64,000 nucleotides of DNA from Pristiophorus japonicus (GCF_044704955.1 NC_092007.1:3720001-3784000), one strand, 5' to 3'. Shown: positions 2,553-61,461, counted from the first letter of the stretch. Made by a program: numbers and translations. Notes: generated by a model from the sequence alone, not told the origin.

Positions 2553-5500
2553 GGTCGTTGACCTAATGCTACATAGCACCATTGGTAGTGCCTGGGGCCA
2601 TGGTGTTCCTTCTTGGTGATATTTGGCAAGCCGTTGTTTCAGAGTTCAATTCATTCACTCTACTTGTCCTGATGATTGTGGATGATAAGGACAGTGTAAA
2701 TCCCACGTAATGTTCAGTAACCTACAGACTTCTTTGCAGACAGCACCTGTGAAGTGTGTTCCCTGATCTGAGTCAATGCTACTCGGGACTTCCCATCGGG
2801 GAATGTAATCCTTACACAAGACCTTTGCAGTGTGATTGGCTGTGGCTCTTTTAGTTGGGACAGCTTCTACCCATCTAGAGAATCTGTTGACCATGACAAG
2901 AATGTTAGTGTATCCTTGGCATGAGGGAAGAGATATATAATCAACCTGCAGGTGCTGGAATGGTCCGACAGGGGCAGGGGGCCTCAGCTGGGGCATTACC
3001 GTGATGGGTCCAGAATTATTTTTCTGGCAGACCACACAGCGGTCTGCTACCAGCTGGGCGTGTTTTTTAAATCCCCGACCTAACCAGCTTTTCTGGAACC
3101 GTGCCATCATCTGTTGTGAGGCCAAGTGTCCCCACGAGTGGATCTGTTGGGCTAAAAAAGGCATAAGCGCTTATGGCGCGACTGGCTTGTCGGTAACTCT
3201 TTGTCTCCAGACACCATCTTCGCATAGCTTAATTCCTGCCTCAATCTATGTCCATTTTTCCTCTCGGGAGCACTCACCTTGCATTGTTTGAAGGTCTCGT
3301 GTCAGAGTCCTGAGTGCTTTCAATCTGTACATCTGTGTTGGTTCTTCTGGGGGAACGCCCTGTGAGGCGGCATCTTTAGCTGCCTGGTCGGCTAGGGCAT
3401 TTCCCTGTGCTTCCATGGTATTTTCCTTGGTATGGGCCTTACACTTCAGGATGGACACTTCCTGAGGTAATTGTATGGCCTCTAGTAAGTCTCGGACTTC
3501 TTTTCCATTTCGGATACGTGTACCAGCAGCAGTGAGGAATCCTATTTTCTGCCATAACAGACCAAAGTCGTGAGCGACTCCAAAAGCATAACGCAAATCT
3601 GTGTACACATTAGCTGTCTGTCCTTCTGCTATTCAACATGCTTCTGACAGGGCCCGTAACTCGGCCTGTTGTGCTGACGTTCCTGAGGGTAAACATCCTT
3701 TTGCCACTAAGGTTGTAACTGCCCATCTTGCTTTTCTAGTACCATTGTCAATAAAGGAGGAACCATCTGTAAACAGGATGAGGTCTGGGTTGTGCAGAGG
3801 CTCCTCTGCTGCTAAGGCTGCTTCTTCTGTTTCTTTTAAAATCTCCACGCAGTCATGCTCTTCACATTCTCCCCCCTCTTGCTCCCTCAATTCTGACATC
3901 GGGAGCATAGTTGCGGGATTAACTGGGCTGGCCCGGACGATATGGAGATTAGGAGCTTCCAAAACTGCTGTCCAGCGGGTCCATCTAGCTGCCGTCACCT
4001 GAGACATTCTTTTCAAAGACAGCAAAGCATGTACGGTGTGGGGACACTAGACAATCAGCTTTTGGTCGAGGACTAGACCCGCAGTGATCATTACCGCTCG
4101 ACATGTAGCTTCCATGGCCCTTAGGCAACTTTCCCATCCGAGGGCTACCGCATCCAGTTTTGCCGAATAATAGCCAATAGGTCTTTGCCGATCACCATGT
4201 TCTTGTGTCAGTATAGCTTTCATATATCCTTCTTTCTCATGAACAAACAGGGTAAATGGTTTACCACTGTCGGGGATTCCCAGAGCCGGTGCCGAACACA
4301 AAGCCTTTTTCAAACTCAGGAAGGCCTCTTGCTGTTCTTTAGTGAGGGTGATGGCTTCTTTAGAGGCACGTTTCCCTTTAAAATATCATTCAGTGGCTGA
4401 GCAAGCTGTGTGAAGGAGTCAATCCAATTTCTGTTAAAGTTACACAATCCCAAAAAAGACCTTAGTTCCTGAATAGTGGTGGGTTTTTTAGCAGCCCGAA
4501 TGGCTGCAGTTCTATCCTGGGTAAGTTCTCTCTTTCCTTGTGAAGTCTTTAGTCCCAGGTACACAACCTCTTGGGATATTTGTGCTTTGTCGATGCTGGC
4601 TTTATGTCCTTTCAGCCGCAGGTGATCCAGCAAAGCTCGTAAATCTTGTTCATGCTGGTCTTCCGTGTTTGAAGCTAGCAGGATAGCATCTACATATTGG
4701 ATGACTGTGGATGACAGGGGAGGTAATTCTCGCAAATGGCTTTGTAAAGCCATGTGGAATACTGTAGGGCTGTTGTGGAAACCCTGCGGTGACCGGGTCC
4801 AAGTATACTGTTGTCCTTGGACTGTGAAAGCAAACCACTGTCGAACCTCCAGTGCCAGAGGCACCGACCAAAATCCGTTGGCCATATCTATAACCGAGAA
4901 ATATTTATGTTCCGGTTTGAGGGCATTAAAAATGGTGGAGGGATCTGCGACCAAAGGAGCTTTTTGATCAATACACTGATTAGCTTTCCTATAATCGACA
5001 GTCAAACGCCAAGTCTCATTAGATTTCTGTACCGGCCACACGGGGCTATTGGAGGAGCTATGCGTTTTAATAAGCACCCCTTGTTTCTCCAATTGCTGAA
5101 TAACCGGTAAGATTCCCGCGATGGCAGTTGGACTGATGGGATACTGTTTAGTGCATGGAGGCTTGGTCCCTGTAAATGATGCAGGCTCCATCTGGAGTCG
5201 GCCACAATCGTTCTTATCTTTAGCCCATATCGGGTGTTCCTTCAATTCTTCTTTCTTCAAAGTTCTAATTGACCATGTCACCTGACCATCCTCAAAATGC
5301 AACGATGAATCTACTTGGATTAGAACGTCCATGCCCAAATGGGGTTGATCTACTGGGCCTATCCAGACTGGCGTGGTTAGTTTATGTGGACCCAGCCCTA
5401 TAAGTACCGGTGTTGTCCTTTTAATTTCCATTTTATGGCCCCCAACTCCATAGGCTGTACGTGCCCTACCATCCAACGGTAAAATGTCTCCATATTGTAG

Positions 5501-5640
5501 AGGTAAGCATGTTAATTCCGCCCCGTGTCTAAAAGACAGTCCACATCCTTATCGCCCACCCTCACAGTTATATATAGCCCGTCTCCCCTTTGTTGTTTTA
5601 GTGCGAGGAGGGGGGCCAGTGTGGGCTCTAATCGTTTTTT
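2553..5640 (-). pseudogene. pol: Retroviral pro-pol (protease, RT, RNase H, integrase), disrupted
   Basis: PR LLDTG; RT IDMANGFWSVPL, PQGFHNSP, YVDA (mutated YVDD); RH FTDGSS...SAQQAEL; IN HHCC, LQVDY, SDQGTHF, HPQSSGQVE. Split by several stops and frameshifts. Confidence 0.93.
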
Positions 5641-7190
5641 GCTATCCCAAGTAACTCCTTCTGTTGTTGTATTGTCAGTCGCTTAAATGCTTCTATGAGG
5701 TCATTATCTTGTGACAAGCCTGGTTTGTTGGCTGAATTGTATCCCTGGCTGCGTCCTCTTCCCCGGCCACGACCTTGCTGTTTTGCCCTGCACGTCTTGG
5801 CCCAGTGACCTTCTTTCCCACAATAATGAAATTTTCCGGGTAATTTTCCAAATGTCTGTTTATCGGAATCCTGGGATTTCCATCCCACAGCCTGCAGGGC
5901 TCGGACTTTAGCTCCCATATCCCGATCTAATTGGTTACAATGAACCACCAATGCTGCAAAGGTAGTTCCTCTACCTTCCCAGTCCGGTAACACTACCTTC
6001 AGCATTTTGGACAGTTCTGGCATTAGACCTGCTACGAAAGCTGCTTTCAGGGGTCCAAACACTTGTTCATCCATTTCCTCATCCGTATTATTCATACCCG
6101 AATGTTCTAGCCACGCGCATCTAAACCGCTCGCCATACTCCAGGACCTCCTCTGTTCCTTTCTTTTGGCAGCCTGCAATTTTTCCCCAGTCTGTCTTAGC
6201 TGGACTGAAGGTTTGCAGCCAGTGTTTAATCGCCTCCCACCCTGCGTTTAATTCTTGCTCATCCTTCCCCAAAGCTTCTTCTACCTTGTCGTACAATTTT
6301 CTTCCCTGTGTTTTTGGCACCATTATGGTCAAAATTTGCACTCCGTCCCAGGGATGAAGTTGATATATATTTCTTAAGCGGTTCAATTGGTCCCACGTTT
6401 TTGCTCCCCCTTTCTTTGGATTGGGCAACTCCTTGGACCATTTATCAATTTTCTCTGGGTCTGCCGGATCATGAACTAAGTATTCTGCATACACCCTTCT
6501 CTTTGTTTTTTTGGTTCCGCCCTCATCCGCAGTCTCTTCTGATTTGACTACAATTCCTCTTTTTAAAAATGGGGCAAAGTGCACCCCTAATTCTTCATCC
6601 TCCGACCCTGTATTGTCGGAGGATTCAGAATCCGTATCTATTCCTCGGTCGTGTCTTCGGGTTTGCGCTTTTAATTTATCCAAACATGGGTACCCTGGGA
6701 ATTGACCGATACATTTTCCTTTTCCTATTACTGTCTCTTGACCTAATGATTTTTTCCATTCTTTAATTTCACCTTTAAGATCTTTAACTCCCGCTTCCAG
6801 CTTTTCAAGTTCAAGCTTTTTCTGTCGCAGCTGCGCACAAACAGCTTGCAATTGATCCTTTGCACTGGTCAGTTCTTGATCATTTTGGGAACACATTATA
6901 ATTTCATTCCGCTTTTGGATCTTTCCCATAATGGCTAGGGACCATCTCGTTCGCTCTTTATTTTTCATATGGGTCGTTTTTCCCCAGACCCTTTTAATCT
7001 CGTCCAAGGACCATTGTCCTTTGGAGGTTCCGTACTTTTGTTCGATCTTATTACAGGTTTTAGATAAGTTGAATTGTTGCTCTATGTATTCTTTCAACTG
7101 TTGGAGGATTTCATCTATCGAAACCTCAGGTGGTGCCTGTCCACCTTTAACCGTTGTAGGCAATTCTTTGCTCTTATCTCCTGCTGCCAT
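5628..7190 (-). CDS. gag: Retroviral Gag, open 520-aa ORF
   Basis: Follows the PBS/leader; coiled-coil region, MHR-like CQKKGTEEVLEYGERF, zinc knuckle (F)HYCGKEGHWAKTC, RG-rich tail. Confidence 0.9.
   Translation of the reverse strand: MAAGDKSKELPTTVKGGQAPPEVSIDEILQQLKEYIEQQFNLSKTCNKIEQKYGTSKGQWSLDEIKRVWGKTTHMKNKERTRWSLAIMGKIQKRNEIIMCSQNDQELTSAKDQLQAVCAQLRQKKLELEKLEAGVKDLKGEIKEWKKSLGQETVIGKGKCIGQFPGYPCLDKLKAQTRRHDRGIDTDSESSDNTGSEDEELGVHFAPFLKRGIVVKSEETADEGGTKKTKRRVYAEYLVHDPADPEKIDKWSKELPNPKKGGAKTWDQLNRLRNIYQLHPWDGVQILTIMVPKTQGRKLYDKVEEALGKDEQELNAGWEAIKHWLQTFSPAKTDWGKIAGCQKKGTEEVLEYGERFRCAWLEHSGMNNTDEEMDEQVFGPLKAAFVAGLMPELSKMLKVVLPDWEGRGTTFAALVVHCNQLDRDMGAKVRALQAVGWKSQDSDKQTFGKLPGKFHYCGKEGHWAKTCRAKQQGRGRGRGRSQGYNSANKPGLSQDNDLIEAFKRLTIQQQKELLGIAKND
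5634..5640 (-). promoter_or_regulatory. -1 ribosomal frameshift heptamer A AAA AAC at the gag-pro junction
   Basis: Gag ends GCA AAA AAC GAT TAG. The -1 frame reads RLEPTLAPLLALKQQRGDGLYITVRVGDKDVDCLLDTG; the read-through frame hits TAA after 9 codons. Confidence 0.85.
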
Positions 7191-7455
7191 AATACTGATT
7201 TCTTTACTGGGGTCTCGAGTCGTAGGCTTTCCAGCCGATCAGTAGGTTGGTGATTAATTAACTAACACACCGCCGAACTTAGACGTCTATGGGACCTCGA
7301 GCCGACTACCAACCGGAGGGTTCGCAAACTGGAGGCTTTCGGAATCGCGTAGAAGGCGAGGCAAATTTAGACTTTTGACCGAGGACTTTTATAAAGAGGA
7401 GTCCTTACCTCAGTATGTAGGTCCGATGTCCAAAATTCAGTTTCTTCCCTTAGCG

Positions 7456-12258: not shown

Positions 12259-12561
12259 ATACACTCCCAAGGGCCGGTATTTCCATCGATCCGGAATCTG
12301 GTGTGGTGGGCTGAGGGAAGCCCTTTCACATTACCTGCACAAGCCCCGTGCTCCTCCGCTCGGGGGGCCGGTTTGTCTTATACCGAAATGGCACGGAGAA
12401 TCCCACAGAGGCTCAGGATGTGTCTGGATCTGACCACTCGGCCTTCTTCCCCCTCACGGGCAACAACCAGACCCGGAACTACACCTGTGCCTACGGAAGG
12501 ACGGTCAAAGGGAGAGTGTATCTCTCGCCCCGCAGTGTCACGCTGCAGGTAACAGTGACAG
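12259..12561 (+). pseudogene. Second Ig C2-type exon of the LRC-like receptor, with in-frame TGA at 12312-12314
   Basis: ttgcag acceptor, 303 bp phase 1/1, gtgag donor. DTLPRAGISIDPESGVVG*GKPFHITC...FVLYRNG...NYTCAY...SPRSVTLQVTVTG. Confidence 0.85.
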
Positions 12562-12585: not shown

Positions 12586-14116
12586 GGGAAAGGACAGGAT
12601 TACAGAGTGAGTGTGTACACATGGGGGAAGGTTAGAGAGGATTACAGAGTGAGTGTGTACACGTGGGGGGAAGGTTAGAGAGGATTACAGAGTGAGTGTG
12701 TACACGTGGGGGGAAGGTTAGACAGGATTACAGAGTGAGTGTGTACACGTGAGGGGAAGATTAGAGAGGATTACAGAGTGAGTGTGTACACGTGGGGGGA
12801 AGGTTAGAGAGGATTACAGAGTGAGTGTGTACACGTGAGGGGAAGGTTAGACAGGATTACAGAGTGAATGTGTACACGTGAGGGGAAGGTTAGACAGGAT
12901 TACAGAGTGAGTGTGTACACGTGACGGGAAGGTTAGACAGGATTACAGAGTGAGTGTATACACGTGAGGGGAAGGTTAGACAGGATTACAGAGTGAGTGT
13001 ATACACATGAGGGGAAGGTTAGAGAGGATTACAGAGTGAGTGTGTACACGTGGGGGGAAGGTTTGACAGGATTACAGAGTGAGTGTGTACACATGAGGGG
13101 AAGGGTAGAGAGGATTACAGAGTGAGTGTGTACACGTGAGGGGAAGATTAGACAGGATTACAGAGTGAATGTATACACGTGAGGGGAAGGTTAGACAGGA
13201 TTACAGAGTGAGTGTATACACGTGAGGGAAAGGTTAGAGAGGATTACAGAGTGAGTGTGTACACGTGGGGGGAAGGTTAGACAGGATTATAGAGTGCGTG
13301 TGTACATGTGGGGGAAAGGTGAGACAGGATTACACTGTGAGTGTGTACTCGTGGGGGAAAGGTTAGACAGGATTACAGAGTGAGTGTGTACATGTGGGGG
13401 GAAGATTAGACAGGATTACAGAGTGAGTGTGTATACGTGAGGGGAAGTTTAGACAGGATTACACAGTGAGTGTGTATACGTGAGGGAAAGGTTAGAGAGG
13501 ATTACAGAGTGAGTGTGTACACGTGAGGGGAAGTTTAGACAGGATTATACAATGAGTGTGTACACGTGGGGGAAAGGTTAGGCAAGATTACAGAGTGAGT
13601 GTGTACACATGGGGGAAAGGTGAGACAGGATTACAGAGTGAGTGTGTACACATGGGGGGAAGGTTAGACAGGATGACAGAGTGAGTGTGTACACGTGGGG
13701 GGAAGGTTAGAGACGACTACAGAATGAGTGTGTACACGTGGGGGGAAGGTTAGAGAGGATTACACAGTGAGTGTGTACACGTGAGGGGAAGGTTAGACAG
13801 GATTACGCAGTGAGTGTGTACACGTGGGGGGAAGGTTGGAGAGGATTACAGAGTGAGTGTGTACATGTGGGGGGAAGGTTAGACAGGATTACACTGTGAG
13901 TGTGTACATGTGGGGGAAAGATTAGACAGGATTACAGAGTGAGTGTGTACACGTGGGGGGAAGGTTAGAGAGGATTACACAGTGAGTGTGTACACGTGAG
14001 AGGAAGGTTAGAGAGGATTACAGAGTGAGTGTGTACACGTGGGGGGAAGGTTAGACAAGATTACAGAGTGAGTGTGTACACGTGGGGGAAAGGTTAAACA
14101 GGATTACAGAGTGAGC
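12586..14116. repeat. 43-bp minisatellite, about 35 copies
   Basis: Unit GTGTACACGTGGGGGGAAGGTTAGAGAGGATTACAGAGTGAGT. Confidence 0.97.
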
Positions 14117-14659: not shown

Positions 14660-15860
14660 TTCAGGAGAAAGTTGTGATGAACCTGTATAAAACACTGGTT
14701 CGTCCCTAACTGGAGCATTGTGTCCAATTCTGGGCAGCACACTTTAGGAAGAATGTGAAGGCCTTAGAGAGGGTGCAGAGCAAGGTTTACAAGAATGGTC
14801 CCAGGGATGAGGGACTTTAGTGACGTGGAGAGACTGGAGAAGCTGGGGTTGTTCTCCTTAGAGCAGAGAAGGTTAAGGGGAGATTAAGAACATAAGAAAT
14901 AGGAGCCTGCTCCGCCATTTAATATGATCATGGTTGATCCGATCATGGACTCAGGTCCACTTCCCTGCCCGATCCCCATAACCCCTTATCAGTTAAGAAA
15001 CTGTCTATTTCTGTCTTAAATTTATTCAATGACCCAGCTTCCCCAGCTCTCTGAGGCAGCGAATTCCAGTTTTACAACCCTGTGAGAGAAGAAATTCCTC
15101 CTCATCTCAGTTTTAAATGGCGGTCCTTATTCTAAGATCATGCCCTCTAGTTCTAGTCTCCCCCATCAGTGGAAACATCCTCTCTGCATCCACCTTGTCA
15201 AGTCCCCTCATAATCTTATACATTTCGATAAGATCACCTCTCATTCTTCTGAATTCCAATGAGTAGAGGCCTCTGGGGTAGAGAATTCCAAAGATTCACC
15301 ACTCTCTGAGTGAAGATGTTTCTCCTCATCTCCGTCCTAAATGACCGACCCTTTATCCTGAGACTGTGACCCCTGGTTCTAGACTCCCCAGCCCCAGGAA
15401 ACATCCTCCCTGATTCTACCCTGCCAAGCACTGTAAGAATTATGCCTGTTTCAATGAGATCACCTCTCATTCTTCTAAACGCTAGAGAATATCGGCCTAG
15501 TCTGCTCAATCTCTCCTCATAGGGCAATCCCCCCATCCCAGGAATCAGTCTGGTGAACCTTTGTTGCACTCCCTCTATGGCAAGTATATCCTTCCTTAGG
15601 TAAGGAGACCAAAATTGCGCACAATACTCCAGGTGTGGTCTCACCAGGGCCCTGTATATTTCCAGTAAGATGTCTTTAGTCTTATACTCAAATCCTCTTG
15701 TAATAAAGGCCAACATACCATTTGCTTTCCTAATTGTTTGCTGTACCTGCAGGTTAACTTTCAGTGATTGGTGTACAAGGACATCCAGGTCCCTCTGAAC
15801 ACCAAAATTTCCCAATCTCCCACCGTTTAAAAAATACTCTGCTTTTCTATTTCTATTCTA
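14660..15860. mobile_element. Patchwork of CR1 3' fragments (14660-14885 +, 14886-15265 -, 15265-15860 -)
   Basis: LVRPHLEYC, RRMRGDLIET motifs and AAGAACAT tails. Confidence 0.85.
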
Positions 15861-18800
15861 AGCGGCAGTATTATACCACTAGAACCCCTCAATGGTGGTC
15901 TCTGGACCTGCCGCAGGCACCTTATCACGTGACCCTAGCATACGATCTCAGTGGAAAGAATCAGGACCTGCAGAACTTTTATCAGGATCACGAAGGGGAA
16001 GTGAAGGAAATTCTATTAAGGGCTAGAGTGACTGGACCAGAATGGAAGGCAGATTTTGTGGAAATGGATAAGAATCTGTGGAGACAGCAACCAACAGTGG
16101 CACCACATATTACTCGTGAAGTATTATCTCCCCACCACACTAAAGATTTAGGAGTTATGGTGTGCCAGGCTATAGACGAGGCTGACCCTACCAGCAGGGA
16201 TTTGCAGATTGTAAAACATGACCGAACAGTCCAATTCCACGGGGACCCCGAGAATGTCTTAACGACTCTGCAGCATCATACTGGCACTGACATACCTGAC
16301 TATGTGGATCCTCATGTGTGGGCAGAGGACCCCTCCCAAGTGGGTTATACTCCCATTGATCCGATTGAGATCCCAGTGCAGGGCAATGTGGACTGGCCCT
16401 CTATCCGACAGTACCTACTGAAACCATAGGCAATACCAAGTATCCACCAACTGATTAAGGGGCTAGTGGAACAGGGGATTTTGGTCCAATGCCAGTCCCC
16501 GTGTAATACTCCTATACTGGCAGTCCCGAAGCCAGGCAAGCCAAATGAATACTGTTTAGTTCAAGACCTTCGAGCTATCAATGCTATCGTCCAGCCCCTA
16601 CACGCTCTGGTTCCCAACCCAGCACAGATACTGTCATTAATCCCAGCAAACGCCAAGATCTTCGCTATAATAGACCTTCAACATGCCTTCTTCACTTTGC
16701 CACTAGCCCAGGCAAGTCAGTACCTATTCGCCTTCACTTACCAGGGACAGCAATATACCTGGACTAGACTTCCCCAAGGGTTCATCCACTCCCCGACCTT
16801 ATTCTCAAGGTGCCTGCAGAAACAGTTACAGTCCCTCACGCTGACTAAGGGATGCACTTTGATTCAGTATGTGGACGATTTACTGGTTGCCAGCGCAGAT
16901 GAACCAAGTAATCAGGAGAATGCTAATCAGTTACTGAATTACTTGTCCTCCCTGGGATACATAGTTTCCCCATCAAAGGTCAAAATTGGCCAGTCTCAAG
17001 TCAAGTTCCTTGGGATAATTCTATCAGGCACCCACCGAGCTTTGGAGGCTAGCCGAGTCGAACCAATTTGCCAGTTTCCAGTCCCTAGCACAGCTAAACA
17101 AATGCGGCAGTGGTTGGGGATGATCAATTACTGCAGATCCTGGATCCCTAATGTTGCCCTGATGACTAAGCACCTCACACCGTATACAAATAAGGAAGGC
17201 AGCTTTGAAATAAAAGCCGCAGATGTCCAAGCCTTTAAGGAACTAAAGACAGCCCTGCTGCAAGCTCCGGCTTTGGGCCGGCTTCTCTATGACCGGCCCT
17301 TTCAATTGTATTGTACAATCCTCAGAAACACGGGGATAAGCATAGGCCTGTTGCCTACTACTCTTCCAAAATAGACCCCGTTGCCTTGGGGCACCCTGTA
17401 TGTACTCAAATATTAACCGCCATCTACAATAGCCTCCAATCAGCTGCCAACATTACCCTCCAGCAGGATATTGTTGTGTACACCTCTCACTCCGTTGCTG
17501 CCCTCCTGAGCCAACTGCCGACTCAACACCTTACCATGGCCAGACAAAGCAGATATGAGATCTACTTACTAAATAATCCAAAGCTGACCTTTCGGCACTG
17601 TACTGCCATTAATCCGGCCTGTTTTCTTACTGAGCCACCCCAAGATGAGGAAGAACCCAGTCATGGTTGTTTATCTTTAATTCAAGAGGCCTCATCGGTC
17701 AGGGAAGATTTAGTTGATGTACCAATGGATGACCCAGACTGTATTATGTATGTTGACGGAAGTTTTTCTATTAATCGAGAAGGTACACGAATCTCAGGAT
17801 ACGCCATAGTAAACCAGGAGAATCAGGTCTTGGAATCTGCCGCCTTTGAAACCGCCTATTCTGCCCAACAAGCTGAACTATTCACCCTCACCCGAGCCTG
17901 TATCTTGGCCAAAGACCTCAAAGTCAATATCTATACCGACTCTAGGTATGCCTTTGGGGTAGCCCATGATTTTGGACAATTATGGAAAAATAGGGGATTC
18001 CTAACCTCACAGGGGAATGAGATATCCCATATGCAACTAGTATCTGATTTGTTGCAAGCCCTCATGCTCCCCAAGCACATTGCCATTGTTAAATGTACCG
18101 CCCAAACCACCGGAAAATCCCCGGTTGATATAGGGAACCACTGTGCTGACAAAGAGGCTAAACAGGCCTCTCGTGAACATCATATGTTAGTGCCCAGAAT
18201 GATGAGTCAGACTAAAATTCCTGCGAAGGATAAGTTAGCCTCGGAAAAACCAATGCCAACCATCCAAGATGTCATTAAAGCACAGGAGGATGCTCCTGAA
18301 AAAGAAAAACTGTTGTGGAGAAATTATGGATGTACTTATGACAATGTTTCTAAACTCTGGACCACTCCCGCGGAACAGACTTGCTTGTCTGACGAGTTGG
18401 CTCTATGGGTTATTGAATGTATGCATTTTGCTACTCATTGTGGAGCAAGAACCATGAGTGACACACTTTTGGCTACTTGGTGGCACCCTAGACTCCAGGC
18501 GCTCGCCCAGAACATCAGTAGTCGTTGCCTGGTTTGCCAGCAACATAATCCAGGGAAGGGAGTCCCCTGTGATTGGGGTAAAACGCCCTTACCCGAAGGT
18601 CCCTTTGAGACATTGCAATTGGACTATATTGAGTTGCAAAGAATTCAGTGTTACAAATATGTGTTAGTAATAGTAGATATATTTAGCAAATGGATTGAAG
18701 CCTACCCTACCCTGGACAATAAGGCTCAAACTGTTGTTAAGGTGTTAATGAGGGAAATTGTTCCTAGATATGGAATCCCAGCTCGACTGAGTTCTGATAA

Positions 18801-19391
18801 TGGCCCTCACTTTATTGGCCAAGTTAACAAACAATTCTTTTCCCAGATGCGCATTAATCAGCAGCTGCATTGTGCCTACCGACCCCAAGCTGCGGGACTG
18901 GTTGAACGTGCTCATCAAACTCTTAAAACCAAGCTTGCAAAACTGGTAGCATCAACCGGACTCAATTGGCTCAAACTCCTTCCCATAGCCCTATTCCAGA
19001 TTCGAACCACTCCGACCAGCACGGCTAGATTGACACCTGCTGAGGTCATTTATGGTAGGCCCCTTAGGACCCCCTGGAATCAGAATGTCCCCTCCACTGT
19101 CCAATTTCACCACATGACTGAGGAAATGACCACCTATGTTCTTTCTCTGACACAAGCTCTGCGACTAGCTCACAACCAGGTTCGAGAGGCTCACCTCGAC
19201 TCCCAGTTTTACCCGAATCGTCTCTCGTGGTACCAGGGAAGTATGTCCTGATTAAGAAATGGATTCGGAAGGGATTAGAGCCACGATGGGAGGGGCCTTT
19301 TCAGGTGTTACTCACTACCCCCACTACAGCCAATGTTGAGGGGAAAAGTGCCTGGGTTCACCTGCACCACTGCAAGCTCACCACCCTCTAA
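15861..19391 (+). pseudogene. pol: Epsilon-like (class I) ERV pol: 2H-phosphoesterase-like domain, RT, RNase H, integrase
   Basis: IDLQHAFF, LPQGFIHSP, QYVDDLL; YVDGS, SAQQAEL, YTDSRYAFG; LQLDY, SDNGPHF, PQAAGLVER; GPF domain WEGPFQVLLTTPT. Stop at 16427 and frameshifts near 17320 and 19210. Confidence 0.93.
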
Positions 19392-19622
19392 CAAACCTAT
19401 GTTTCTGGTTATTCTAATTCCTGTTTCAGTTCCAGATTTCCTCTTCTCCATTGCTGAACAAGGCCGTCGACATCCTAATTGGAACGTGGACCAGTTTGAA
19501 CTTTTACCCGCAGTGATAGACAGCCAGCTACACTGACGGTGACCTGAGAAGAGAGACGGGAAAACTGAACTCTTTTAATCAGCAAAATAATTGGACTATT
19601 TATTTGAATCCTGAGCCATAAG

Positions 19623-19895
19623 ATGAAACTGTGTCTGTGTGCCACAGTCTGTATAATAGTGTTGATATATGACAGTTTCGGCGCATGGGAGGGGAGACAG
19701 AGGCGAGAAATCCATGTAAACACCTTTTTGTACATGTCTTATGTTTATGCGCAAAATGGGCACTTTTCTAGATGCTGGGTGTGTTCACATATCCCTATAC
19801 ATTCCAAAGGGGGAATTCCTTTGCGCCCCATTCCACTAACCCTAACTGAGACTGTCAGATGGATTCAGAGCCAGACTATCACAAGAGGAGGGGGG
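19623..19895 (+). pseudogene. env: Retroviral env N-terminus, truncated by CR1
   Basis: Signal peptide MKLCLCATVCIIVLIYDSFG, RQRR, then CWVC (CXXC) and GIPLRPIP; lies just after pol and a ttcag acceptor near 19429. Confidence 0.8.
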
Positions 19896-21205: not shown

Positions 21206-22656
21206 GAATAGTCCACGTAATTGTTCCATTATTTTGTTGCTGAGGGCTAATGGGCCATCAGGCATTATTAGCCAGCTAGATTGTATTACTTTTAAGTTAT
21301 AATTAAAATTGGTTCATTGTAACTCTTTCATGGTATCTATTGCATGTGATTGGTCTAGGGAGATCTGTATCTAGAAAATTACTCAGTTAGGCTAACTTGC
21401 GGAAAGCATTACGGGCGAAGGCATTGAGGATGGCTGCGATCACTGTGAAACAAAATAGCTGGAAGATACATCAATGAGTTCTATGAGTAAACAGTCCAGA
21501 AAGCAGATATGGAGAATAGGAACTGTAATCACACAGGACAGATAAGGTCAGAACAGGTGAAGAAACACAGCAGGTGAGGGAGCAGGTACAATGCAGGTCA
21601 GCTGTGCTTGTTTTCTAATTGTATAAATTTATGATTTTTATTACACGTAGATGCCCTGTGCTGCAAACAGCAACAACTTGTATTTATATAGCGCCTTTAA
21701 TGTAGTGAAACATGAGTATTATGAGATAAAAAAATTTGACACCCAGCCACATAAGTAGAAATTGCACAGACCTAAACCTATTCAACACCTCGCTCTGTGC
21801 ACTCAGCCAATGGTATTGAGGCTGCAGGCAGTGCTACTGCCAACTGCTGCTGTTCACTGAACTATGGCTGCAAGTTTTCCCTTGAATCGCTTAACGCAGG
21901 ACCGCTGAGTTTTGCATATTATGGTAGAGATAAGCACCCTGAATGCTAATCAAGAGGTTCTAAAACACGGCCTGAATTCGTGGTCCCTGCGAGTGTATAC
22001 GAAGTGTGCATGTCCCTGTAGGGGCCCCACAAGCTCTAGGTTTAGATATCCGAATTGCATTCGCCTAGACCTGGAATTTGCAATTTGTCAAGAATCCTCC
22101 AAACAGATCACACGCATCCGGAGGTAAGACGTAAGGCCTGCTTTTATCAGCGTGAGACTTTAAAAGTACAGAAAAATATATATTTATTAAATAATGTAAA
22201 CATTTTAAATGAGACAAGTTTATTTTTGGAAGCTTTAAAGTAGGTAAATTTATTTTTCCAAAAATTATTATTTTTTAAAAATTAATTAAATTCATTTTTA
22301 TTCATTTGACATATCTGATGGTTTAAAAAAAATATTTTTAGTGTTTGTTTTTTGGGGGTAATCCCATTCATAGTTATGATGATTCCGTATGTACAGAACT
22401 CACCCTAAGTATGAATGGAGATTCGCTAATTTGCTCGGTTAGATACGCTACTTGGATAGGTGGGCATTTAGGCAGGCCTTCGCATAGAGGGTCAGGACCA
22501 CGAATCTCTCAACATCCCGGACCACCAGATGCTTTCGTAGAGATTTTTGAGGTCGGAGGCCTCGACCCGAAAATTTCTGGGCCAGAATAGTGTCCCGACG
22601 TTCCCCATTTCAAAAGACACGGGCTTCGATATTGGGATGTCGATCGCGGTTAGTCA

Positions 22657-23558
22657 CTATTTAAACAATTGGACAACCCGTGTCAGCGGATATTTCAACA
22701 CATTTTTCACCTCCTCTCTGAACATACGTTGAGTCGCCGCATAGATGCATGTGTTTGTGCAACAACTTAGGAGCAGGAGCATGTACCCGGCTTCCTGCAG
22801 GATGTAGACAGGGTCGTCATAACCGGTGTAGGCATAGGTATTTGTGACCCGATAATACACAAAATGCACGATAAACGTCATCCACAAGAGAATGAAACTG
22901 CCGGAAATGGTGAAGAGTAAAATTATGGATTTCCTTCGGTTCTCCAACTCCGGGTCCTTGGGATTTTCCCGGTTGTTTTTGTGACGGAGAGCTTTGCGTG
23001 ATCTGTTGGCCACGACAATGCATCTTACAGTCAGGGCATTGAGCAGCAGGATCAGAAAGAATGGGAGGAATGGGGTAGCAATACAATTAAAGGAAGAATA
23101 TATTATCCACAAAGGTGCGGTATAAAAGATGGATTTCGTGTGGCAATACCAAGGCACCTCGCCAATTACGTATAGGGGTTCAAATTTGAAATACCAGGGT
23201 ATGTTTTGCAAACAGCCGAGAATAAACACCATCCCCACCACTGCGGTTGCCAGTTCCTTTGTGCAGTATTTCCTCTTCAGCTTCTGGCAGCAGATGGCGA
23301 GGAACCGATCAAAGGTGAACGCAACCGTCAGCCAGACGGAAATGTCCCTGCTCGCGTAAATGAGGACGATTTTCAGGCTGCATATCGGGGTGGTCGACAT
23401 GTAGCTGCCTGGGAAGTAGATGCCGACGATGCGATTTAGAACCACGCCGGTGATAATGACCAGTAGATCTGCCACAGCCATGCCCACCAGGTAGCGAGTG
23501 ATGCATTCGGAGAGGCCGCACTTTCCACGGGACAGGGCCACAATCGCCACCAGGTTTG
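22657..23558 (-). CDS. GPR139/GPR142-like class A GPCR, gene 1, exon 2
   Basis: ttttcag acceptor; TM2 MAVADLL, TM3 FTFDRF, TM7 NTCIY; 902 bp. Confidence 0.92.
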
Positions 23559-23639
23559 CTGAAAATAAACAGGTTAAAATAAAAGGGAACTGACCCATCT
23601 ATTCTTGACATAAAATTCACGTCTTTAGCATATATTTGC

Positions 23640-24545
23640 CTGGATCGACCTTCCCTCCATCATAATGTCAGAAGTGGGGATGTTTGCTGAAGAGTGCACA
23701 GTGTTCAGTTCCATTCGCAACTCCACAGATAATGAAGAATGCAGCAAGACCTGGACGACATTCAGGCTTAGGCTAATAAGCGGCAAATAACATTCGCGCC
23801 ACACAAGTGCCAGTCAATGACTATCTCCAACAAGCGAGAGTCTAACCAATGCCCCTCGACATTCAACGGTATTGCCATCACCAAATCTCCCACCATCAAT
23901 ATCCTGGGGGTCACCATTGGCCAGAAACTTAACTGGACTAGCCAGATAAATACTGTGGTGAAAAGAGGAGGTCAGAGGCTGGGTATTCTGTGACGAGTCT
24001 CTGACCGCCTGACTCCCCAAAGCCTTTCCACCATCGACAAGGCACAAGTCAGGAGTGTGATGGGATACTCTCCACTTGCCTGGATGAGTGCAGCTCCAAC
24101 AACACTCAAGAAGCTAAAAACAAATCAGGGCAAAACAGCCCTCTTGATTGCCTCCCCATCCACCACTTTAAAGATTAACTCCCTCCATCGAGTCTTCAGT
24201 CTGTACCATCTACAAGATGCAGTGCAGCAACTCGCCAAGGCTTCTTCGGCAGCATGTCCCAAACCCACAACCTCGACCACCTTGAAGGACAAGGGCAGCA
24301 GGTGAATGCAAACACCACAACCTCCCTGTTCCCCTCCGAGTCACACACCATCCTGATTTTGAAATATATCACTGTTGCAACATTCAAAGTCCCGGAACTC
24401 CCCCCATAACAGCAGTGTAGCACCTTCACCACATGGACTGCAGCAGTTCAAGAACACGGCTCACCACCACCTTCTCAATGGGCAATTAGGGATGGGCAAT
24501 AAAAGCTGGCCTAGCCAGTGATGCCCACATCCCAGGAACAAACAA
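23640..24545 (+). mobile_element. CR1/L2-group LINE 3' fragment (paralogous pieces at 37565-38470 and 57050-57505)
   Basis: Degenerate FADD, YKAQVRSVMEYSPLAW; tail gcaattagggatgggcaataaa. Confidence 0.75.
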
Positions 24546-24949
24546 AAAAAATCTATGACAATCTAGTTGATCTTGCCCAGAATTTTTTTAAATTTCAAAA
24601 TATACTTTATTCATATAAAAATTTGAACAGTATATTCAAAAGCAGTTCAGTACATTTAACAGCGAGAATAATGGCCAATTAGTTGATATTCACATCACAT
24701 TAATTAATTCTATGTTGATTCCATTTGTGAAAACTGCAATACCGCACCCCTGTGGAGGAGCAGGGTATCTCTGACAGTAACTTTGAGGATTTACGAGGTT
24801 AGCTGCGCATCTGCTGATGATAGGTGCTGCTGTCAGTTTTACACAGTGTTAACGGTGAGCAAATTCGTGGCCACTTTTTGAATGGTTTTGCAGAATCAAT
24901 CACATTTCGGAAAGCGGGAGAAGTTGAAAAGTGGACAATGGGAAGTAAG

Positions 24950-25570
24950 ACATGTATTTATATAGCGCAATTCACGACCACCGGACATATAAAAACACTT
25001 TACAGCCAATGAAATACATTTGAATTGTAGTCACCGTTGTAAAGTGGCAGCCAATGTATGCATAGAAAGCTCCCATCAATGTGATAATAACTGTTTTTGG
25101 TATATTGATTGAGGGATAAATATTGACCCAGGACACCAGAGATATCTCCATTCCTCTTCTTCAAAATAATGCCATGGGATCTATTATGTCCACCTGATAG
25201 AGCACACAGGAGCTCGGTTTTTGGTTTCATCAGAAAGACGGCACATCTGGCAGTGCAGCAGTTCCTGAGTACTGTCTCTCCGACATTACCGTGCTCTCTC
25301 AGTACTGACCCTCCGAAATGCAGCACTCCCTCAGTACCGCCCCTCCGACAGTGCAGCGCTCCCTCAGTACTGCCCCTCTAACAGTGCAGTGCTTCCTCAG
25401 TGCTGCCCCTCTGACAGTGTGGCACTCCCTCAGTACTGCCCCTCTGACAGTGTGGTGCTCCCTCAGTACAGTCCCTCCGACAGTGCGGCGCTCCCTCAGT
25501 ACTGCCACTCCTACTCGAACCCACAACCTACTGATTCAGAGGGTAGTGTTTTACCCACAGAGCCACAGCT
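24950..25570 (-). mobile_element. SacSINE1/DeuSINE-like SINE with internal 33-bp tandem expansion (duplicate at 40270-40900)
   Basis: tRNA-like head, CAGTACTGAGGGAG repeats, Deu-like body, gcgctatataaat tail. Confidence 0.75.
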
Positions 25571-25992
25571 GAGTTGCTTGGAGCTGAATGCCTTGCGTGC
25601 ACTCGATACAATTGCACATATGCTTCTGAGAGACAACTCACAGCTATGTCTTCCACTCTGTCCAACTCGCTGCAACTCATGGAATCTTCAAACAAAGCAA
25701 TAGTGAATACAGTTTTGTGAGCATTCCCACTGCTTGGTGCCGAACCTTGTTTCATGGTTTAGAATAATTAGGATTATTGCTTACATTGGAAAAAAAAATA
25801 AGTTTCTAAAATCTAAACATGTTAAATAAGTTAAATAAATTCAGCATGATTTGTGCACTGGACTGCACTATTGAATCGTGAACTCTCTCAGAAGTAAGGC
25901 TAGGCAGTGGCTCAAACACCAGATATGCAGTAAGTGCAATCAATCATTTAATCATTGTTTTGCATAATTAATATGAGACTGCAATGACTTAC

Positions 25993-26062
25993 CAGGAATA
26001 CCGACAGCAGCGAGAACCGGGTAGTAAATAGCATACAGCAGACCACTTACAGGTTCATGCAT
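25993..26062 (-). CDS. GPCR gene 1, exon 1
   Basis: MHEPVSGLLYAIYYPVLAAVGIP + G|gtaagt; 70 bp, splices in frame to exon 2 to give 323 aa. Confidence 0.9.
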
Positions 26063-28639
26063 CTTCTGTCAGAAGTGCTGATACCTGATGCTCGTGGAAA
26101 CGATCATTCTGAGAAGCAAAGTACCTCTGCTATATACATCAGCAACCACCCCACGGGACAATTGGGCATTAATTAACATCATTACTGTAACTTCATTGCT
26201 ACATAGTGCCATTATTTACTTCATTGCTGTTATCTTGCTGACATTCATCTTGGCAAATCCCACCCTTGATTCAATACTATTTCCTTGGGTTGTCAGATAT
26301 GCTACTAGCTTCCTCTACTGTAAACACTGAAGGAAAGTAATTATTAACATGTCCACCATTTCCTTATTTTCAGTTACATTAACACCGCTATCAGTTTTCA
26401 AGGGGCACACTTTACTCCTGATTACCCTCTTCTTTCTAATATAATTGTTTAAAAATTATGTTGATTTTGATAAAAATTTAAAGTAACTTTTCATACTCTC
26501 TTTTTGTAGCTCTTACTATCTGTGTTTACACAAGATTACATTGGATTATTACAGTGAGAATAAGGGGTTGATAGTTGCATGCTTCTGTTTTGTTACTTGT
26601 CATACCTGGTTAGAATGCAGTCAGGCTCCATGCCCCATTGTTAAACACATCCAGGCATAATTATCTTATTTTGAAGCTGTTTCACTGTTACAAGGTGGCT
26701 TATGTCATGTTTTATGTGCAGGCAATCATAGCCAAATTCTCAGTCTGCTCATTTGTATGTAGGCTTCTCTGGGAGAGCACTGATACATGCATATATGTAT
26801 AAATGAAGAGCTAGTTTGTGTAATATGATCGCTTGCAAGATAAGCAGCACTATATGTTATGGTTTTGGAAAATAACTGATTTGGTCAGATTTTCAAAACT
26901 TACAAACCAACCCCTCCCTTCCATTCAGTGAATAATAAGTCAGCATGATGAATCCTATCTTGCAAAATGTGCATGCAAATGATAGACAGAACTCAGTAAC
27001 ATTTTAGCCTTGTCACTAACATCAACAGATTTCTGGTAGAAAATCCCACTATGCTATGTTCAATTACTTTGTCATAACATCTTCCTGATATGCCTCATTG
27101 ATAACATTTTCCTTAAGTTGTTCTGCAGAAATAACTTTTGGGTACAGTTTATGGAGAGTCATAGCCATATCCCATTCACTTTTCCTTTAAATTATTACAG
27201 ATCTCTTGGGCCTTATTATAAACATCTTATGTATCTTCAAGTTCCATTATGGAGAAACTTCTCCCGATATTGTCTTTTCCAGAGCTTCCATTCGTTCTGG
27301 CAGTTTAATACTGGGTCAAATAATGAACTAGTTTCCAGGATTTAAACTTGACGATTGCCTGTATGTTAATAACCTGGTAACCCAGAGCAAACGTAGACTC
27401 AAAAAGGGAAGAATCTACCGAACAACCTCCTTTGATTTTTTTTAACAAGTAACATTCCAAGTGGATAGTGGAAAGCTCTGTAACATAGTGCTCCCATGAT
27501 TCCAAAAAGCATTTGATAAAGGTGCACTTGAATCATTGCTAGTTAAAGTCAAAGCAGTGAGGATTGAGAATACAATTTGGGAATAGATTTTAAAACATTG
27601 GTTGAAAGGTAGAAAGTACTGGGTATTTGCTAAAGGAGTTATGGTGGGGCGGGGGGTAGAATTTGTTAGAATTCCCAAACTTCTAGAATGTGACAATATG
27701 AGCTTTTGATAATTGTGTTAATCATAATCAAAAATTTGCAGGTCTCCAGTCGTCTTGGTTAACCCTTGCCACTGAATCAAGACCTAGCTCTGTCAAGCCC
27801 GTGTGGCATTAAAAAGATCCACACAAAGGCATCTTCCACCCTTCAGGATGTAGTTCAGGACCTGGAATTTTAGGTCCTTCATTGGAACACCATGAACTTA
27901 TCCTTTTTTTGTTTGTAAGTCATCCTCGTTTAAAGGAATTGCCTGTGATGACATTGGATATACAGTTCAGAGACAGGCCATTTATCCCAACCAGTCCATG
28001 CTGCATTTATGCTCCACTCGAGCCTTCTCCCATCTTTCCTCATCTAAACCTATCCGCTTAACCCTCTATTTCCTTCTCCCTCATATGCTTGTATAGCCTC
28101 CCCTTAAATGCATCGATACTATTCACCTCAACCACTCCCAGTAGTAGCGAGTTCCACATTCTCACCACTCTGGGTGAAGAATTTTCTCCAGAATTCCCTA
28201 TTGGATTTCTTGAAAACTTTTCGTCTTTGTATCTCTCCCAGTTACCAGCATCTGTGCTATTTTGTGCTTCTTTGTATGCTTGATCTTTTCATTTCATGTT
28301 GTCACTTACTTCTATTTGCCACCCATGGCTGCATTTGGCAAGCAGAGCTTTTGCCCCTTAATGGCATAAACTGGTCCTGCATCATTTTAAATTCCTTTTT
28401 GAAGTGCTGCCACCAATCTTCTGTCGATTCACCCATTATCAAAGTTTGGCTAGTCATATACAATCAGTGGGAGCGAAAGTCCGGATTACCTGAATACCTC
28501 ACTGTTTGTTTTGCACCGTCTGTGAGAATAGCACATGGGCTGCGTTAAAAGTTCAAATGGTACGATGTGTAAGAGTCATTCAGCCATATATGGATGTGTG
28601 TACTTGATAACTCTGTGTAGGTTTTATTACAGCAATAAA

Positions 28640-30490
28640 ACATAAGAACATTAGAACATAAGAAATAGGAGCAGGAGTAGGCCATATGGCCACTCCAGCC
28701 TGCTCCACCATTTAATACAATCTTGGCTGATCCAATCATGGACTCAGGTCCACTTTCCTGACCGCTTCACATAACCCCTTATTCCCTTATTGGTTAAGAA
28801 ACTGTCTATCTCTGTCTTAAATTTATTCAATGTCCCAGCTTCCACAGTTCTCTGAGACAGCGAATTCCACAAATTTACAACCCTCTGAGAGAAGAAATGC
28901 CACCTCATCTCAGTTTTTAATGGCGGCCCATTATTCTAAGATTATGCCCCCTAATTCTAGTCTACTACATCAGTGGAAACATTCTCTCTGCATCCATCAT
29001 TGGCGAGCACCCTCAGCGGTTTGTTGAACGATAAGGGGATAAGGGGTTATGGGCAGCGGGCAGTGAAGGTGGAGCTAAGTCCACGATCAGATCAGCCATG
29101 ATCTTAATGAATGGCGGAGCAGGCTCGAGGGGCCATATGGCCAACTCCTGTTCCTATTTCTTATGTTCTTGTGTTCTTATAATCATACCTTTTGATAAGA
29201 TCACATCTCAATCTTCTGAATTCCAATGAGTAGAGGCCCAACATACTCAATCATTCCTCATAATTCAACCCACTCATCTCCGGAATCAACCAAGTGAACC
29301 TGCTCTGAACTGCCTCCAAAGCAAGTATAACTTTTCGTAAATATGGAAAACAAAACTGCACACAGTATTCCAGATGTGGCCTCACCAAGACCCTATATAA
29401 CTGTTGCAAGACTTCCCTGCTTTTATTCTCCATCCCCTTTGCAATAAAGGCCAAAATACCATTGGCCTTCCTGATCTCTTGCTGTACCTGCATATTAACC
29501 TTTTGTTTTTGACGCATAAATACCTCCAGGTCCCGCTGTGCTGCAGCACTTTGCAATCATTCTCCATTTAAATAATAACTTGGTCTTTGATTTTTTTCTG
29601 ACAAAGTGCATGATCACACACTTTCCAACATTGTACTCCATCTGCCAATTTTGTGCCCACTCAGTTAGCCTGCCTATGTCCTTTTGCAGATATTTTAGTG
29701 TCCTCCTCACACATTGCTTTTCCCCCCATCATTGTATCATCAGCAAACCTGGCTACGTTACACTGTCCCTTCTTTCTAGTCGTTAATATAGATTGTAAAT
29801 AGTTGGGATCCCAGCACTGATTCCTGTGGCACTCCACTAGTTACTGATTGCCAACCCAAGAGTGAACCATTTATCCCAAATTCTCTGTTCGTTAGCCAAC
29901 CCTCCATGCATGCTAATATATTACCCCCAACCCCGTGAACTTTTATCTTGTGCAGTAACCATTTATGTGGCAGCTTGTCAAATACCTTCTGGAAGGACAA
30001 ATGCACCACATCCACTGGTTCCCTTTATCCACCCTCTTCATTACATCCTCAAATAATTCCCACAAATTTTTCAAAGATGACTTCCCCTTCATAAATCCAT
30101 GCTGACTGCCTGACCAAATTGTGTTTTTCCAAATGTCATGCTGCTACTTCTTTAATAATGGAGTCCAACATTTTCGCAAATGCAGATATTCGGCTAACTG
30201 ATCTATAGTTTCCTGTTTTTTGTCTGTCTCCTTTTTTAAATAGGGACATTTAATTTGCAATTATCCAATCTGCTGGGACCTCGCCCGAATCCAGGGAATT
30301 TTGGTAAATTACAACCAGTGCATCCACTATCCCTGTCACTACTTCTGTTAAGATCCTAGGATGCAAGCCATCAGGTCCAGGGGATTTATCTGCCTTTAGT
30401 CCCATTATCTTACTGAGTACTACCTCCGTAGTGATTGTGTTAAGTTCCTCCCCCCCCTCGCCCCCATAGTCTCTTGTTGACTATGCACTG
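28640..30490 (-). mobile_element. CR1 LINE with a short sense-strand CR1 tail inserted (about 29020-29175); duplicate at 44000-45860
   Basis: KADKS.GPDG.HPRIL, GVPQGSVLG, LVRPHLEYC. Confidence 0.88.
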
Positions 30491-30959
30491 TTTCAGGAGA
30501 GTTGGGTACCTGGTTGTTTAGTTTTTTTGATATTCAGTGGCATTTGCATGCATCCTTTGATGTACCATGATTTATTGTTAATACGCATGGAATGTACTGA
30601 TCAAAGGGAATAGCTAGTATGTCTCATGTCTAAGCAGTTAGCATACACTGGTCTTTTGAACTGTGTGCCCCAGTAGATCTCAAACTGGTTTTGTGCAGTA
30701 TGAAGTTTCAATAAAGACCTGATCCTGCATTACTACAACTGGGTGCCTGTATAACCTGATGTTTAAAGCAACTAAATGGAAAAGATCAAGAAAAAGGAAA
30801 GTCCCACAGAATTCAGTAATCATGACCTGTGACTCCTCCTGATGTTATCGACACGGGTGGATATTGACTCACAAGATGAGTCACCAACACTTTGTTGCTG
30901 AATGCTGATCAGGTTTAATGCATATCGAATGCTACTTAGCATCAATGGTAACAACAAAA

Positions 30960-31660
30960 CAACAATTTGTATTTAGATAGCACCGTTAACATAGTGAACC
31001 ATTCCAAGGCACGTCACAGGAGTATTGTAAGATAACATTTTGACACTGAGCCACGTAAGGAGAAATCAAGGCAGATGACCAAAAGCTTGGTTGAAGAGGT
31101 AGGTTTTAAGGAACGTCTTAAAGGAGCGATAGGTAGAAAATGGAAAGGTTTTAGGCATGGGTTCCAGAACTTAGGACCGAGGCAGCAGAAGGCACGGCCA
31201 CCAATCGTTGAGCATTTATAATCAGGGATGTTTAAGAAGCCATAATTAGAGGAGCACGGATATCTCATGGGTTTCTGTGGCTGGAAGAGATTACAAAGAT
31301 AGGGCGGGGCGAGGAGGACATGGAGGGATTTGAAACCAAGTATGATAATTTTGGAATCGAAACGTTGCTAAACCGGCAGCCAACATAGGTCAGCGAGCAC
31401 AGGGGGTGATGGGTGAATGAGACTTGGTGCCAGTTTGACACGGGCAGCCGAGTATTGAATGACATCAAGTTTACATAGGGTAGAATGTGGTGGGGCGCGG
31501 CCAAGTGTGCATTAGAATAGTCAAGTCCAGAGGTAACAAGGATGAGGGTTTCAGCAGCGGATGAACTGAGGCAGGGGCGGAAACGAGCAATGTTATAGAG
31601 GTGGAACTAGGGGATCGTAGTGATCGCATGGAGATGTGGTCAGTAGCTCATTGCAGGGCA
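30960..31660 (-). mobile_element. L2-type LINE 3' fragment (duplicate at 46380-47080)
   Basis: LADLYWLPVKQ...FKSLH...PPYLCNLLQ; GGRAF.CLGPK.WN. Confidence 0.75.
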
Positions 31661-32164
31661 CAAAGATGACAAACCATTGATGGTAAAGTTAAGAAGAGGA
31701 TGAAGGAGCAGGAGGATAATTATTCAATAGTGGGATTTTGTTTCACATAGATCTGTTTTTGTGAAACTGGCTTAATTTCATTGCAATGGGTCGAGCTGTA
31801 AGAGAACCAGCTGCTTCGTATTTAATGGTGCTTTACACCAAATTTCTAGGCTAATAGCTTCAGCCCTCCCCATATTCACATTCGTCCTCCTTAAATTACA
31901 TGGTATTTCAGCTACATTTTATAACACGTGATCTTCTCCCCATCAAGGAACTGCCCCAGCTCACTGTTGAAGGTAAGTAAAGAGTCTCGACTCACTGTAC
32001 GAACCTGTAACTTCTTCTGTAGATCTATTATCCTCTGATAAATGAAGAACCATTGAACATCTAAGCTAGCCATAACATTGTACAACCTATATACACGTCC
32101 CTGGCCCCCTTGAACCTATCAAATTGAACTAATCTTCTCGTATGATAACAGTACATTCCTTCAA

Positions 32165-41325: not shown

Positions 41326-41395
41326 CAGGAATACCGACAGCAGCGAGAACGGGGTAGTAAATAGCATACAGCAGACCACTTACAGGTTCATGCAT
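41326..41395 (-). CDS. GPCR gene 2, exon 1
   Basis: MHEPVSGLLYAIYYPVLAAVGIP + G|gtaagt. Confidence 0.9.
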
Positions 41396-58065: not shown

Positions 58066-58149
58066 TAGTTTAACCACGTGCTTTGCAGATTGACGCTTTT
58101 CTGGAAATGCCGCCAATAACAATATCCGTTTTTTAACCCATTGCGGCAG

Positions 58150-61384: not shown

Positions 61385-61461
61385 TATGGCAGGGGGATGG
61401 GAACCAATGCAGGGAGATAGAGGGAAACAAAAAGGCGGCAAAAAAAAAAGACAGAAAGGAG

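Follow-up and report, generated by a model that had tools for sequence, protein, structure and literature searches.

INTRODUCTION

Few retroviruses carry an additional enzyme within Pol, dUTPase being the familiar case. Domains of the 2H phosphoesterase type are already known from fish retroviruses. They are reported from some retroviruses, including walleye dermal sarcoma virus (PMC9503650, citing Mazumder 2002), for which readthrough into Pol has been predicted (PMC3185560), and teleost epsilon-like endogenous retroviruses (ERVs) are reported to be able to encode a CNPase or a macro domain (PMC4977317, citing Basta 2009). A full-text literature search, with most subscription papers outside its scope, returned neither a functional test of the domain nor a report of it from sharks. 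Nor did a term search of the main texts find the domain mentioned in papers that treat the ERVs of sharks, anurans, zebrafish, and jawless fish.

Here, we describe such a domain from the shark Pristiophorus japonicus. It lies in a 64,000-nucleotide stretch of genomic DNA (GCF_044704955.1 NC_092007.1:3720001-3784000), which we call the window and number from its first letter. An original prediction, made from the sequence of the window, held that a retroviral Pol here carries a 2H domain of a kind noted in fish retroviruses, and that this domain might antagonize OAS-RNase L or cGAS-STING. The link to fish retroviruses agrees with the literature above (PMC9503650, PMC4977317) and with our structural searches, in which walleye polyproteins are the top viral matches.

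RESULTS

The window holds a dead fragment of an epsilon-like retrovirus

The ERV fragment occupies positions 15859 to 19890 of the plus strand and comprises the 2H domain, reverse transcriptase (RT), RNase H, integrase, and the start of env. Its 5' edge, at about 15859, is abrupt, and LINE-related fragments abut it at 15234 to 15857. The 64-kb window contains no LTR, gag, or protease belonging to the fragment. The CNPase-like 2H domain, as delimited by the predicted model and its structural match to mouse CNPase, spans residues 1 to 140 of the frame (15863 to 16282, plus strand). Its two motifs share a single open frame (15758 to 16429, plus strand) upstream of RT. Motif 1, PYHVTLAYD, has its His codon (CAC) at 15926, and motif 2, APHITREV...KDLGVMV, has its His codon (CAT) at 16106, a spacing of 180 nucleotides or 60 codons. 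In the predicted model, H-V-T-L (15926 to 15937, plus strand) begins strand 22 to 28 and H-I-T-R (16106 to 16117, plus strand) begins strand 82 to 87, and motif 2 is followed by a helix at residues 93 to 106 (D-L-G-V-M-V...; 16139 to 16180, plus strand). Both motifs are therefore present where the original prediction had placed them. A pattern describing the pair, drawn up post hoc after inspection of the sequence, was also found in 7 of 20,000 shuffles of the 146-amino-acid frame; stronger evidence for the motif pair comes from its conservation in homologs and from the model, which is predicted to fold as a 2H domain.

Downstream on the plus strand lie RT with its YVDD motif (16316 to 17374; Pfam RVT_1, E 6.6e-31; start set by the match to MLV RT) and the RT connection, RNase H, and integrase zinc finger and core (17293 to 19251; Pfam RT_RNaseH, RNase_H, Integrase_H2C2, and rve). 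The integrase C-terminal domain follows in a different frame (19122 to 19391, plus strand; MLVIN_C, E 2.3e-16). Judging by its position, a frame at 19608 to 19890 (plus strand) with a signal-peptide-like stretch is probably the truncated start of env. Pfam gave no informative match for this frame, and the DNA match to other copies of the element runs on to 19870. RT is interrupted by a stop codon (16427 to 16429) between the 2H domain and most of RT and by a 28-nucleotide gap near 17321, and integrase contains an additional frame change. The codon at 16043 carries a private substitution at a position that is invariant in all 26 homologous rows from other species that span it. The description of both HxT motifs as intact thus holds for the motifs themselves and fails for the copy as a whole, which is a dead fragment that cannot make the domain product.

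An immunoglobulin-superfamily gene may flank the fragment or hold it in one of its introns. An Ig-like exon with splice-site-like ends is found at 12260 to 12560 (plus strand; weak Pfam match to Ig_C19orf38, E 0.13) and precedes a tandem array (12593 to 14115) in which a 43-bp unit is repeated about 35 times. Elsewhere in the window, a segmental duplication (21759 to 32830 and 35654 to 48240) is mostly 95 to 96% identical between its copies, and each copy includes a single-exon rhodopsin-family GPCR gene on the minus strand (22657 to 23598 and about 36585 to 37523); a third GPCR frame is located at 58137 to 59048 (plus strand). Two further retroelements are present. One, at 4319 to 7238 (minus strand), has two long frames of 536 amino acids (no Pfam match) and 410 amino acids (with an RT domain), and the other, at 60596 to 63471 (plus strand), is a LINE with a GDSL-esterase-type ORF1 and an endonuclease-RT ORF2.

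The domain belongs to Pol in other copies of the element

At least 150 scored matches to the domain, among 2,803 candidates, are present in the 5.9-Gb genome. The protease motif LIDTGA lies in frame 92 to 93 amino acids upstream of the domain in 21 of 29 other top loci, and a TGA that we read as the gag stop codon lies 122 codons upstream in 20 of these 29. The domain is thus positioned between protease and RT, and Pol is likely made by readthrough. Loci chosen by RT alone carry the domain in 28 of 29 cases. That the domain is part of a retroviral Pol is confirmed by these copies, in which it is in frame with both protease and RT.

Among structural chains, RT matches those of MLV type (E 5e-67), foamy type (E 1e-37), and HIV-2 (E 1e-13), and TLV_coat, a TLV-type transmembrane envelope, was found in another copy of the element. 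On the basis of its MLV-type RT, MLVIN_C, TGA junction, and TLV_coat, we classify the element as an epsilon-like (class I) ERV, the link to the walleye viruses being structural only.

Both motifs are shared by elasmobranch and teleost relatives

The nearest named relative, from Heptranchias perlo, is 45% identical in the domain, 72% in RT, and 82% in part of integrase, in keeping with a cartilaginous-fish host. A full HMMER search gave 14 matches, with skate, catshark, devil ray, catfish, and cichlid as named hosts, and profile searches yielded a second cichlid Pol and further catfish frames. A repetitive algal protein among the HMMER matches (P0007) was dropped as spurious, and three skate near-copies (P0017, P0019, and P0020) were excluded from the alignment. 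The remaining 28 outside rows include 11 from one catfish and several near-copies. The order of protease, domain, and RT recurs in the skate and cichlid proteins. Natural forms of the domain occur in skate XP_055501356.1 and cichlid XP_065327540.1.

All 25 outside rows that span motif 1 have H-x-T, and 25 of 27 have H-x-T/S at motif 2, with Ala at the Thr/Ser position in none of the 27. Also kept are Y-D after motif 1, one Trp, and L-G after motif 2. Both histidines and the motif-1 Thr persist from elasmobranch to teleost rows at 21 to 55% identity, and the teleost forms carry an extra N-terminal stretch that is absent in the elasmobranch form.

The predicted fold is closest to that of CNPase

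An AlphaFold2 model built with 32 natural sequences has a pLDDT of 91 to 97 over residues 11 to 140; each His starts a strand, and a helix follows motif 2. With Foldseek against the PDB, ranks 1 to 49 among the matches listed are vertebrate CNPase/RICH (best E 2e-5), and rank 50 is a fungal RNA kinase entry. VIA-align against 48,161 chains places mouse CNPase first (Z 13.5, rmsd 3.8, 139 aligned residues, residues 3 to 141), followed by drCPDase (6.7), rotavirus VP3 (6.4 and 6.2), and the Arabidopsis Appr>p CPDase (5.8), and further down by Acb1 (5.6), MHV NS2 (5.4), penguinpox cGAMP phosphodiesterase (5.0), and AKAP18 (4.8). By their titles, 12 of the 13 chains with Z of at least 5 are 2H enzymes. 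The comparison with CNPase, AKAP7, NS2, and Acb1 that accompanied the original prediction thus returns a predicted 2H fold nearest to CNPase, and the two motifs and their conservation in outside rows likewise support a domain of the 2H phosphoesterase type.

A library of viral structures, searched with a query that carried about 45 amino acids of RT besides the domain, ranks walleye epidermal hyperplasia virus 1 first (E 3.3e-7), an unnamed 1,072-amino-acid entry second, and walleye dermal sarcoma virus third (E 1.4e-5). The walleye entries are tabled as 'Envelope polyprotein', and from their length and fit we read them as Pol. Acb1 and VP3 are at ranks 39 (E 0.12) and 41 (E 0.13).

Sequence identity to CNPase is 10 to 15%. 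Pfam assigned a 2H family to none of the 32 aligned members, a PDB sequence search with the domain gave no match, a PF05881 search of the genome found the host CNPase gene only, and tblastn against phages produced a chance-level match only. ESM Atlas features of both the domain and a cichlid homolog give low-scoring matches to tRNA_lig_CPD and further 2H families. When the domain is aligned by profile to the host CNPase exon, motif 2 and the following helix segment pair with their counterparts in the exon, but the match is weak (probability 1 to 2%; score 17.7 versus 17.3 for the best of 100 shuffles). The host CNPase exon was not ranked by hmmsearch among 1,391 frames, and a profile comparison with an AKAP7-like exon was null. 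The predicted model clearly points to a CNPase-clade 2H fold, so that the domain would be CNPase-like by fold rather than a member of the Pfam CNPase family. The helix after motif 2 is likely the counterpart of CNPase helix alpha7, a helix that vertebrate CNPases reportedly keep and other 2H enzymes lack (PMC4643303).

The fold bears directly on the two immune targets of the original prediction. In the first case, the domain would be a 2',5'-phosphodiesterase that, in the manner of coronavirus NS2 and rotavirus VP3, removes 2-5A and thereby blocks RNase L. Both viral enzymes belong to the same superfamily (VP3, Z 6.4 and 6.2; NS2, Z 5.4), a cluster of OAS genes is present in the host genome (about five OAS-like genes at G000:C8:218.42-218.60 Mb; a total of 16 exon matches, of which one is on C1), and chimaera OASa together with RNase L is reported to have slowed yeast growth (PMC10400998). 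However, NS2, VP3, and AKAP18 score below half of the CNPase value (Z 4.8 to 6.4). A weak, exon-wise search of the genome for the KEN domain turned up no RNase L gene but two loci, both of which we take to be IRE1-like. Retroviral Pol products are made in small amounts. The known 2-5A cleavers are placed in the eukaryotic-viral LigT group (bioRxiv 10.1101/2021.06.16.448777), whereas our domain lies much nearer to CNPase. Elements of teleosts retain the domain with both motifs, yet ray-finned fish have reportedly lost OASa and RNase L (PMC10400998). We therefore regard cleavage of 2-5A as quite unlikely.

The second target would have the domain degrade 2'3'-cGAMP, or another cyclic dinucleotide arising from cGAS sensing of reverse-transcribed DNA, as do Acb1 and the poxviral phosphodiesterase. 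A retrovirus makes cytosolic DNA, and cGAS-STING, unlike OAS-RNase L, is present in teleosts. Acb1 and the penguinpox enzyme share the fold, and an Acb1 cluster appears, with weak scores, among the Atlas matches for the domain. Yet both enzymes also fall below half of the CNPase score, and Acb1 is far down the viral library. In addition, NS2, NS4b, VP3, and AKAP7 are reported to have left cGAMP uncut (bioRxiv 10.1101/2021.06.16.448777), so the superfamily label does not imply cGAMP activity, and we consider this reading still less likely than the first. An immune antagonist is thus possible and not favored: the shared superfamily speaks for it, but the predicted fold sits with CNPase (Z 13.5 versus 4.8 to 6.4).

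Hydrolysis of ADP-ribose 1'',2''-cyclic phosphate, alongside the macro domains of some fish retroviruses, is a further candidate activity. Genes for a CNPase and for a macro domain have both been described from epsilon-like ERVs of teleosts (PMC4977317), a link of viral 2H and macro domains to ADP-ribose derivatives has been drawn (PMC9503650), and the Arabidopsis Appr>p CPDase is among the fold matches. That enzyme nevertheless scores far below CNPase, and neither the Pol frames of the window nor the full-length skate and cichlid Pol proteins have a match to a macro domain. This is the least probable of the activities considered.

The domain evolved under purifying selection and outlasted the motif-2 Thr

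Selection was assessed on loci picked by RT, independently of the score of the domain itself, and as net divergence between groups of copies, to which 62 of 78 loci were assigned. The net nonsynonymous/synonymous ratios between groups are 0.07, 0.16, and 0.16 for the domain, compared to 0.11 to 0.16 for protease and 0.08 to 0.19 for RT, and shared variants in the RT-picked loci give 0.11 for the domain. The domain evolved under purifying selection, as did protease and RT.

The third residue of motif 2 varies among 78 distinct loci (Thr in 45, Ala in 30, and Ile in 3); the loci were chosen by score, and such counts are not genome-wide frequencies. Conservation of the HxT motifs across copies, which the original prediction had put forward as a check, is consequently found for the histidines and not for this residue. 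Among the first 50 loci, 49 have H-x-T at motif 1, and motif 2 reads H-x-T in 23 and H-I-A in 23. The 29 RT-picked loci, 5 of which are shared with the first set, have H-x-T at motif 1 in 27 and at motif 2 in 23. A midpoint-rooted tree, built on the 570 columns common to the copies, is ladder-like and has Thr on the outer branches, in agreement with the outside homologs. The Ala state sits within a single derived subtree (35 rows) and requires three changes. It arose in RT-bearing copies, as 12 Ala copies hold RT and the RT-less copies nest inside the Ala subtree.

The RT-less subfamily is represented by 18 distinct copies among 25 lower-ranked loci that were fetched (L032, L035, L037, L038, L040-L045, L048-L050, and L095-L099). 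These share deletions of RT (window-equivalent 16434 to 17575) and of part of integrase (18790 to 19126), have gag deleted upstream, and retain protease and the 2H segment in elements of about 7 kb. Paired LTRs were recognized in 6 of 8 long stretches and are 98.5 to 99.5% identical. The subfamily is young and likely non-autonomous, being copied by helper elements.

Relaxation of constraint is confined to the step that leads to the RT-less group, where the ratio for the domain is 0.82 (bootstrap 0.21 to 5.4, few changes), whereas the step to the Ala lineage shows none (0.16). All 18 RT-less copies are also altered at one more position that is invariant elsewhere. We had considered that these copies kept the domain for its usefulness and rejected the idea, given this ratio, the change at the invariant position in 18 of 18, and the deletion of gag.

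Since 30 of the 78 copies, including the 18 of the RT-less subfamily, have H-I-A, the motif-2 Thr is dispensable for spread within the genome. What the change means for catalysis depends on the enzyme taken as a guide. The T311A substitution is reported to inactivate CNPase (PMC4643303), while the equivalent change is described as harmless in E. coli ThpR (PMC4201822) and in yeast Trl1 and as partly harmful in Candida Trl1 (PMC7145591). If the domain behaves like CNPase T311A, Ala would be near-inactivating in these 30 copies.

The unrelaxed constraint at the Ala step fits a structural role as well. On this reading, the domain would serve Gag-Pro-Pol largely without catalysis, as a folded spacer or as a module for binding. 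One such module would be a decoy related to the CNPase of the host, a protein for which binding to lentiviral Gag and a block to assembly have been reported (PMC5434554). Constraint that outlasted the Thr-to-Ala change is what such a role would produce, as is the persistence of 12 Ala copies with RT and the spread of 18 more without it. On the other hand, both histidines and the motif-1 Thr are kept from elasmobranchs to teleosts, as catalytic residues are, and Ala is absent from the motif-2 Thr/Ser position in every outside row that spans it. We judge a mainly non-catalytic role unlikely.

DISCUSSION

We consider it fairly probable, from the analogy to CNPase and the predicted fold, that this part of Pol acts as a 2',3'-cyclic phosphodiesterase and is taken into the virion. 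Readthrough of the stop codon would make it part of Gag-Pro-Pol, with which it would be packaged and from which protease might cut it free. By analogy to CNPase and ThpR, its two histidines would serve as acid and base and convert a 2',3'-cyclic phosphate to a 2'-phosphate and a free 3'-OH. Likely substrates would be broken RNA ends, whether of the primer tRNA or of a genome that has been nicked, or else cyclic nucleotides that host ribonucleases leave behind. The purpose is the least certain step and may be to heal or mask RNA ends left by host ribonucleases. Such ends have been described as stimulating RIG-I/MDA5, NLRP3, and TLR8 (bioRxiv 10.1101/2021.06.16.448777). A common fold does not by itself establish function, and one feature argues against a CNPase-type function: the residue after the motif-2 Thr is not hydrophobic but Arg in the window copy, whereas the outside rows mostly have Leu at this fourth position. 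The 2'-phosphate beside the 3'-OH might also still hinder priming. The predicted activity seems to have been useful but not essential, as a later lineage was able to spread after Ala had replaced the motif-2 Thr.

A broader and more tentative proposal, which we hold to be doubtful though worth stating, is that epsilon-like retroviruses bring along an enzyme for healing RNA ends, namely a CNPase packaged in the virion to open 2',3'-cyclic phosphate ends. This enzyme would date from before the split between sharks and bony fish or would have jumped between them. Where nucleases have damaged the primer tRNA or the RNA genome, it would restore the 3'-OH and hide the ends from innate sensors. Finally, it would be needed for infection and not for germ-line copying. 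An enzyme needed only for infection would account for the loss, in the latest-spreading lineage, of the motif-2 Thr and then of RT.

The present analysis adds to the fish retroviral domains the assignment to the CNPase clade, the argument from teleosts, and the Thr-to-Ala and RT-less lineages. This narrows the candidates: by its predicted fold, the domain is better suited to chemistry on 2',3'-cyclic phosphates than on 2-5A, and its occurrence in teleosts speaks against RNase L being the general target. With its Thr, Ala, and RT-less copies, the genome holds a natural series that dates the loss of constraint on the domain.

Comparison with known systems

The fish epsilon-like retroviruses are similar in having the same fold in the walleye polyproteins and, in a cichlid Pol, the same domain order and motifs. 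They differ in that the host here is a cartilaginous fish, in that one derived lineage has H-I-A at motif 2, and in the N-terminal stretch peculiar to the teleost forms.

Vertebrate CNPase and the fungal tRNA ligase CPD share with the shark domain a pair of H-x-T motifs, each placed where a strand begins, and a helix that follows the second motif, and CNPase is the best structural match, covering the whole domain of the predicted model. CNPase is larger, however, at about 215 amino acids with motifs 79 amino acids apart (H230/H309), compared to about 140 and 60 in the shark domain, which also lacks the PNK-like N-terminal domain of CNPase and shares little of its sequence.

The eukaryotic-viral LigT 2',5'-phosphoesterases (MHV NS2, MERS NS4b, rotavirus VP3-CTD, and AKAP7) resemble the shark domain in belonging to the 2H superfamily and in being borne by RNA viruses, but they form another subgroup whose structural matches extend over 98 to 110 aligned residues. 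Acb1 (140 amino acids) and the poxviral cGAMP phosphodiesterase are likewise small viral 2H domains of similar size, but they are encoded by stand-alone genes, whereas the shark domain sits in a Pol polyprotein.
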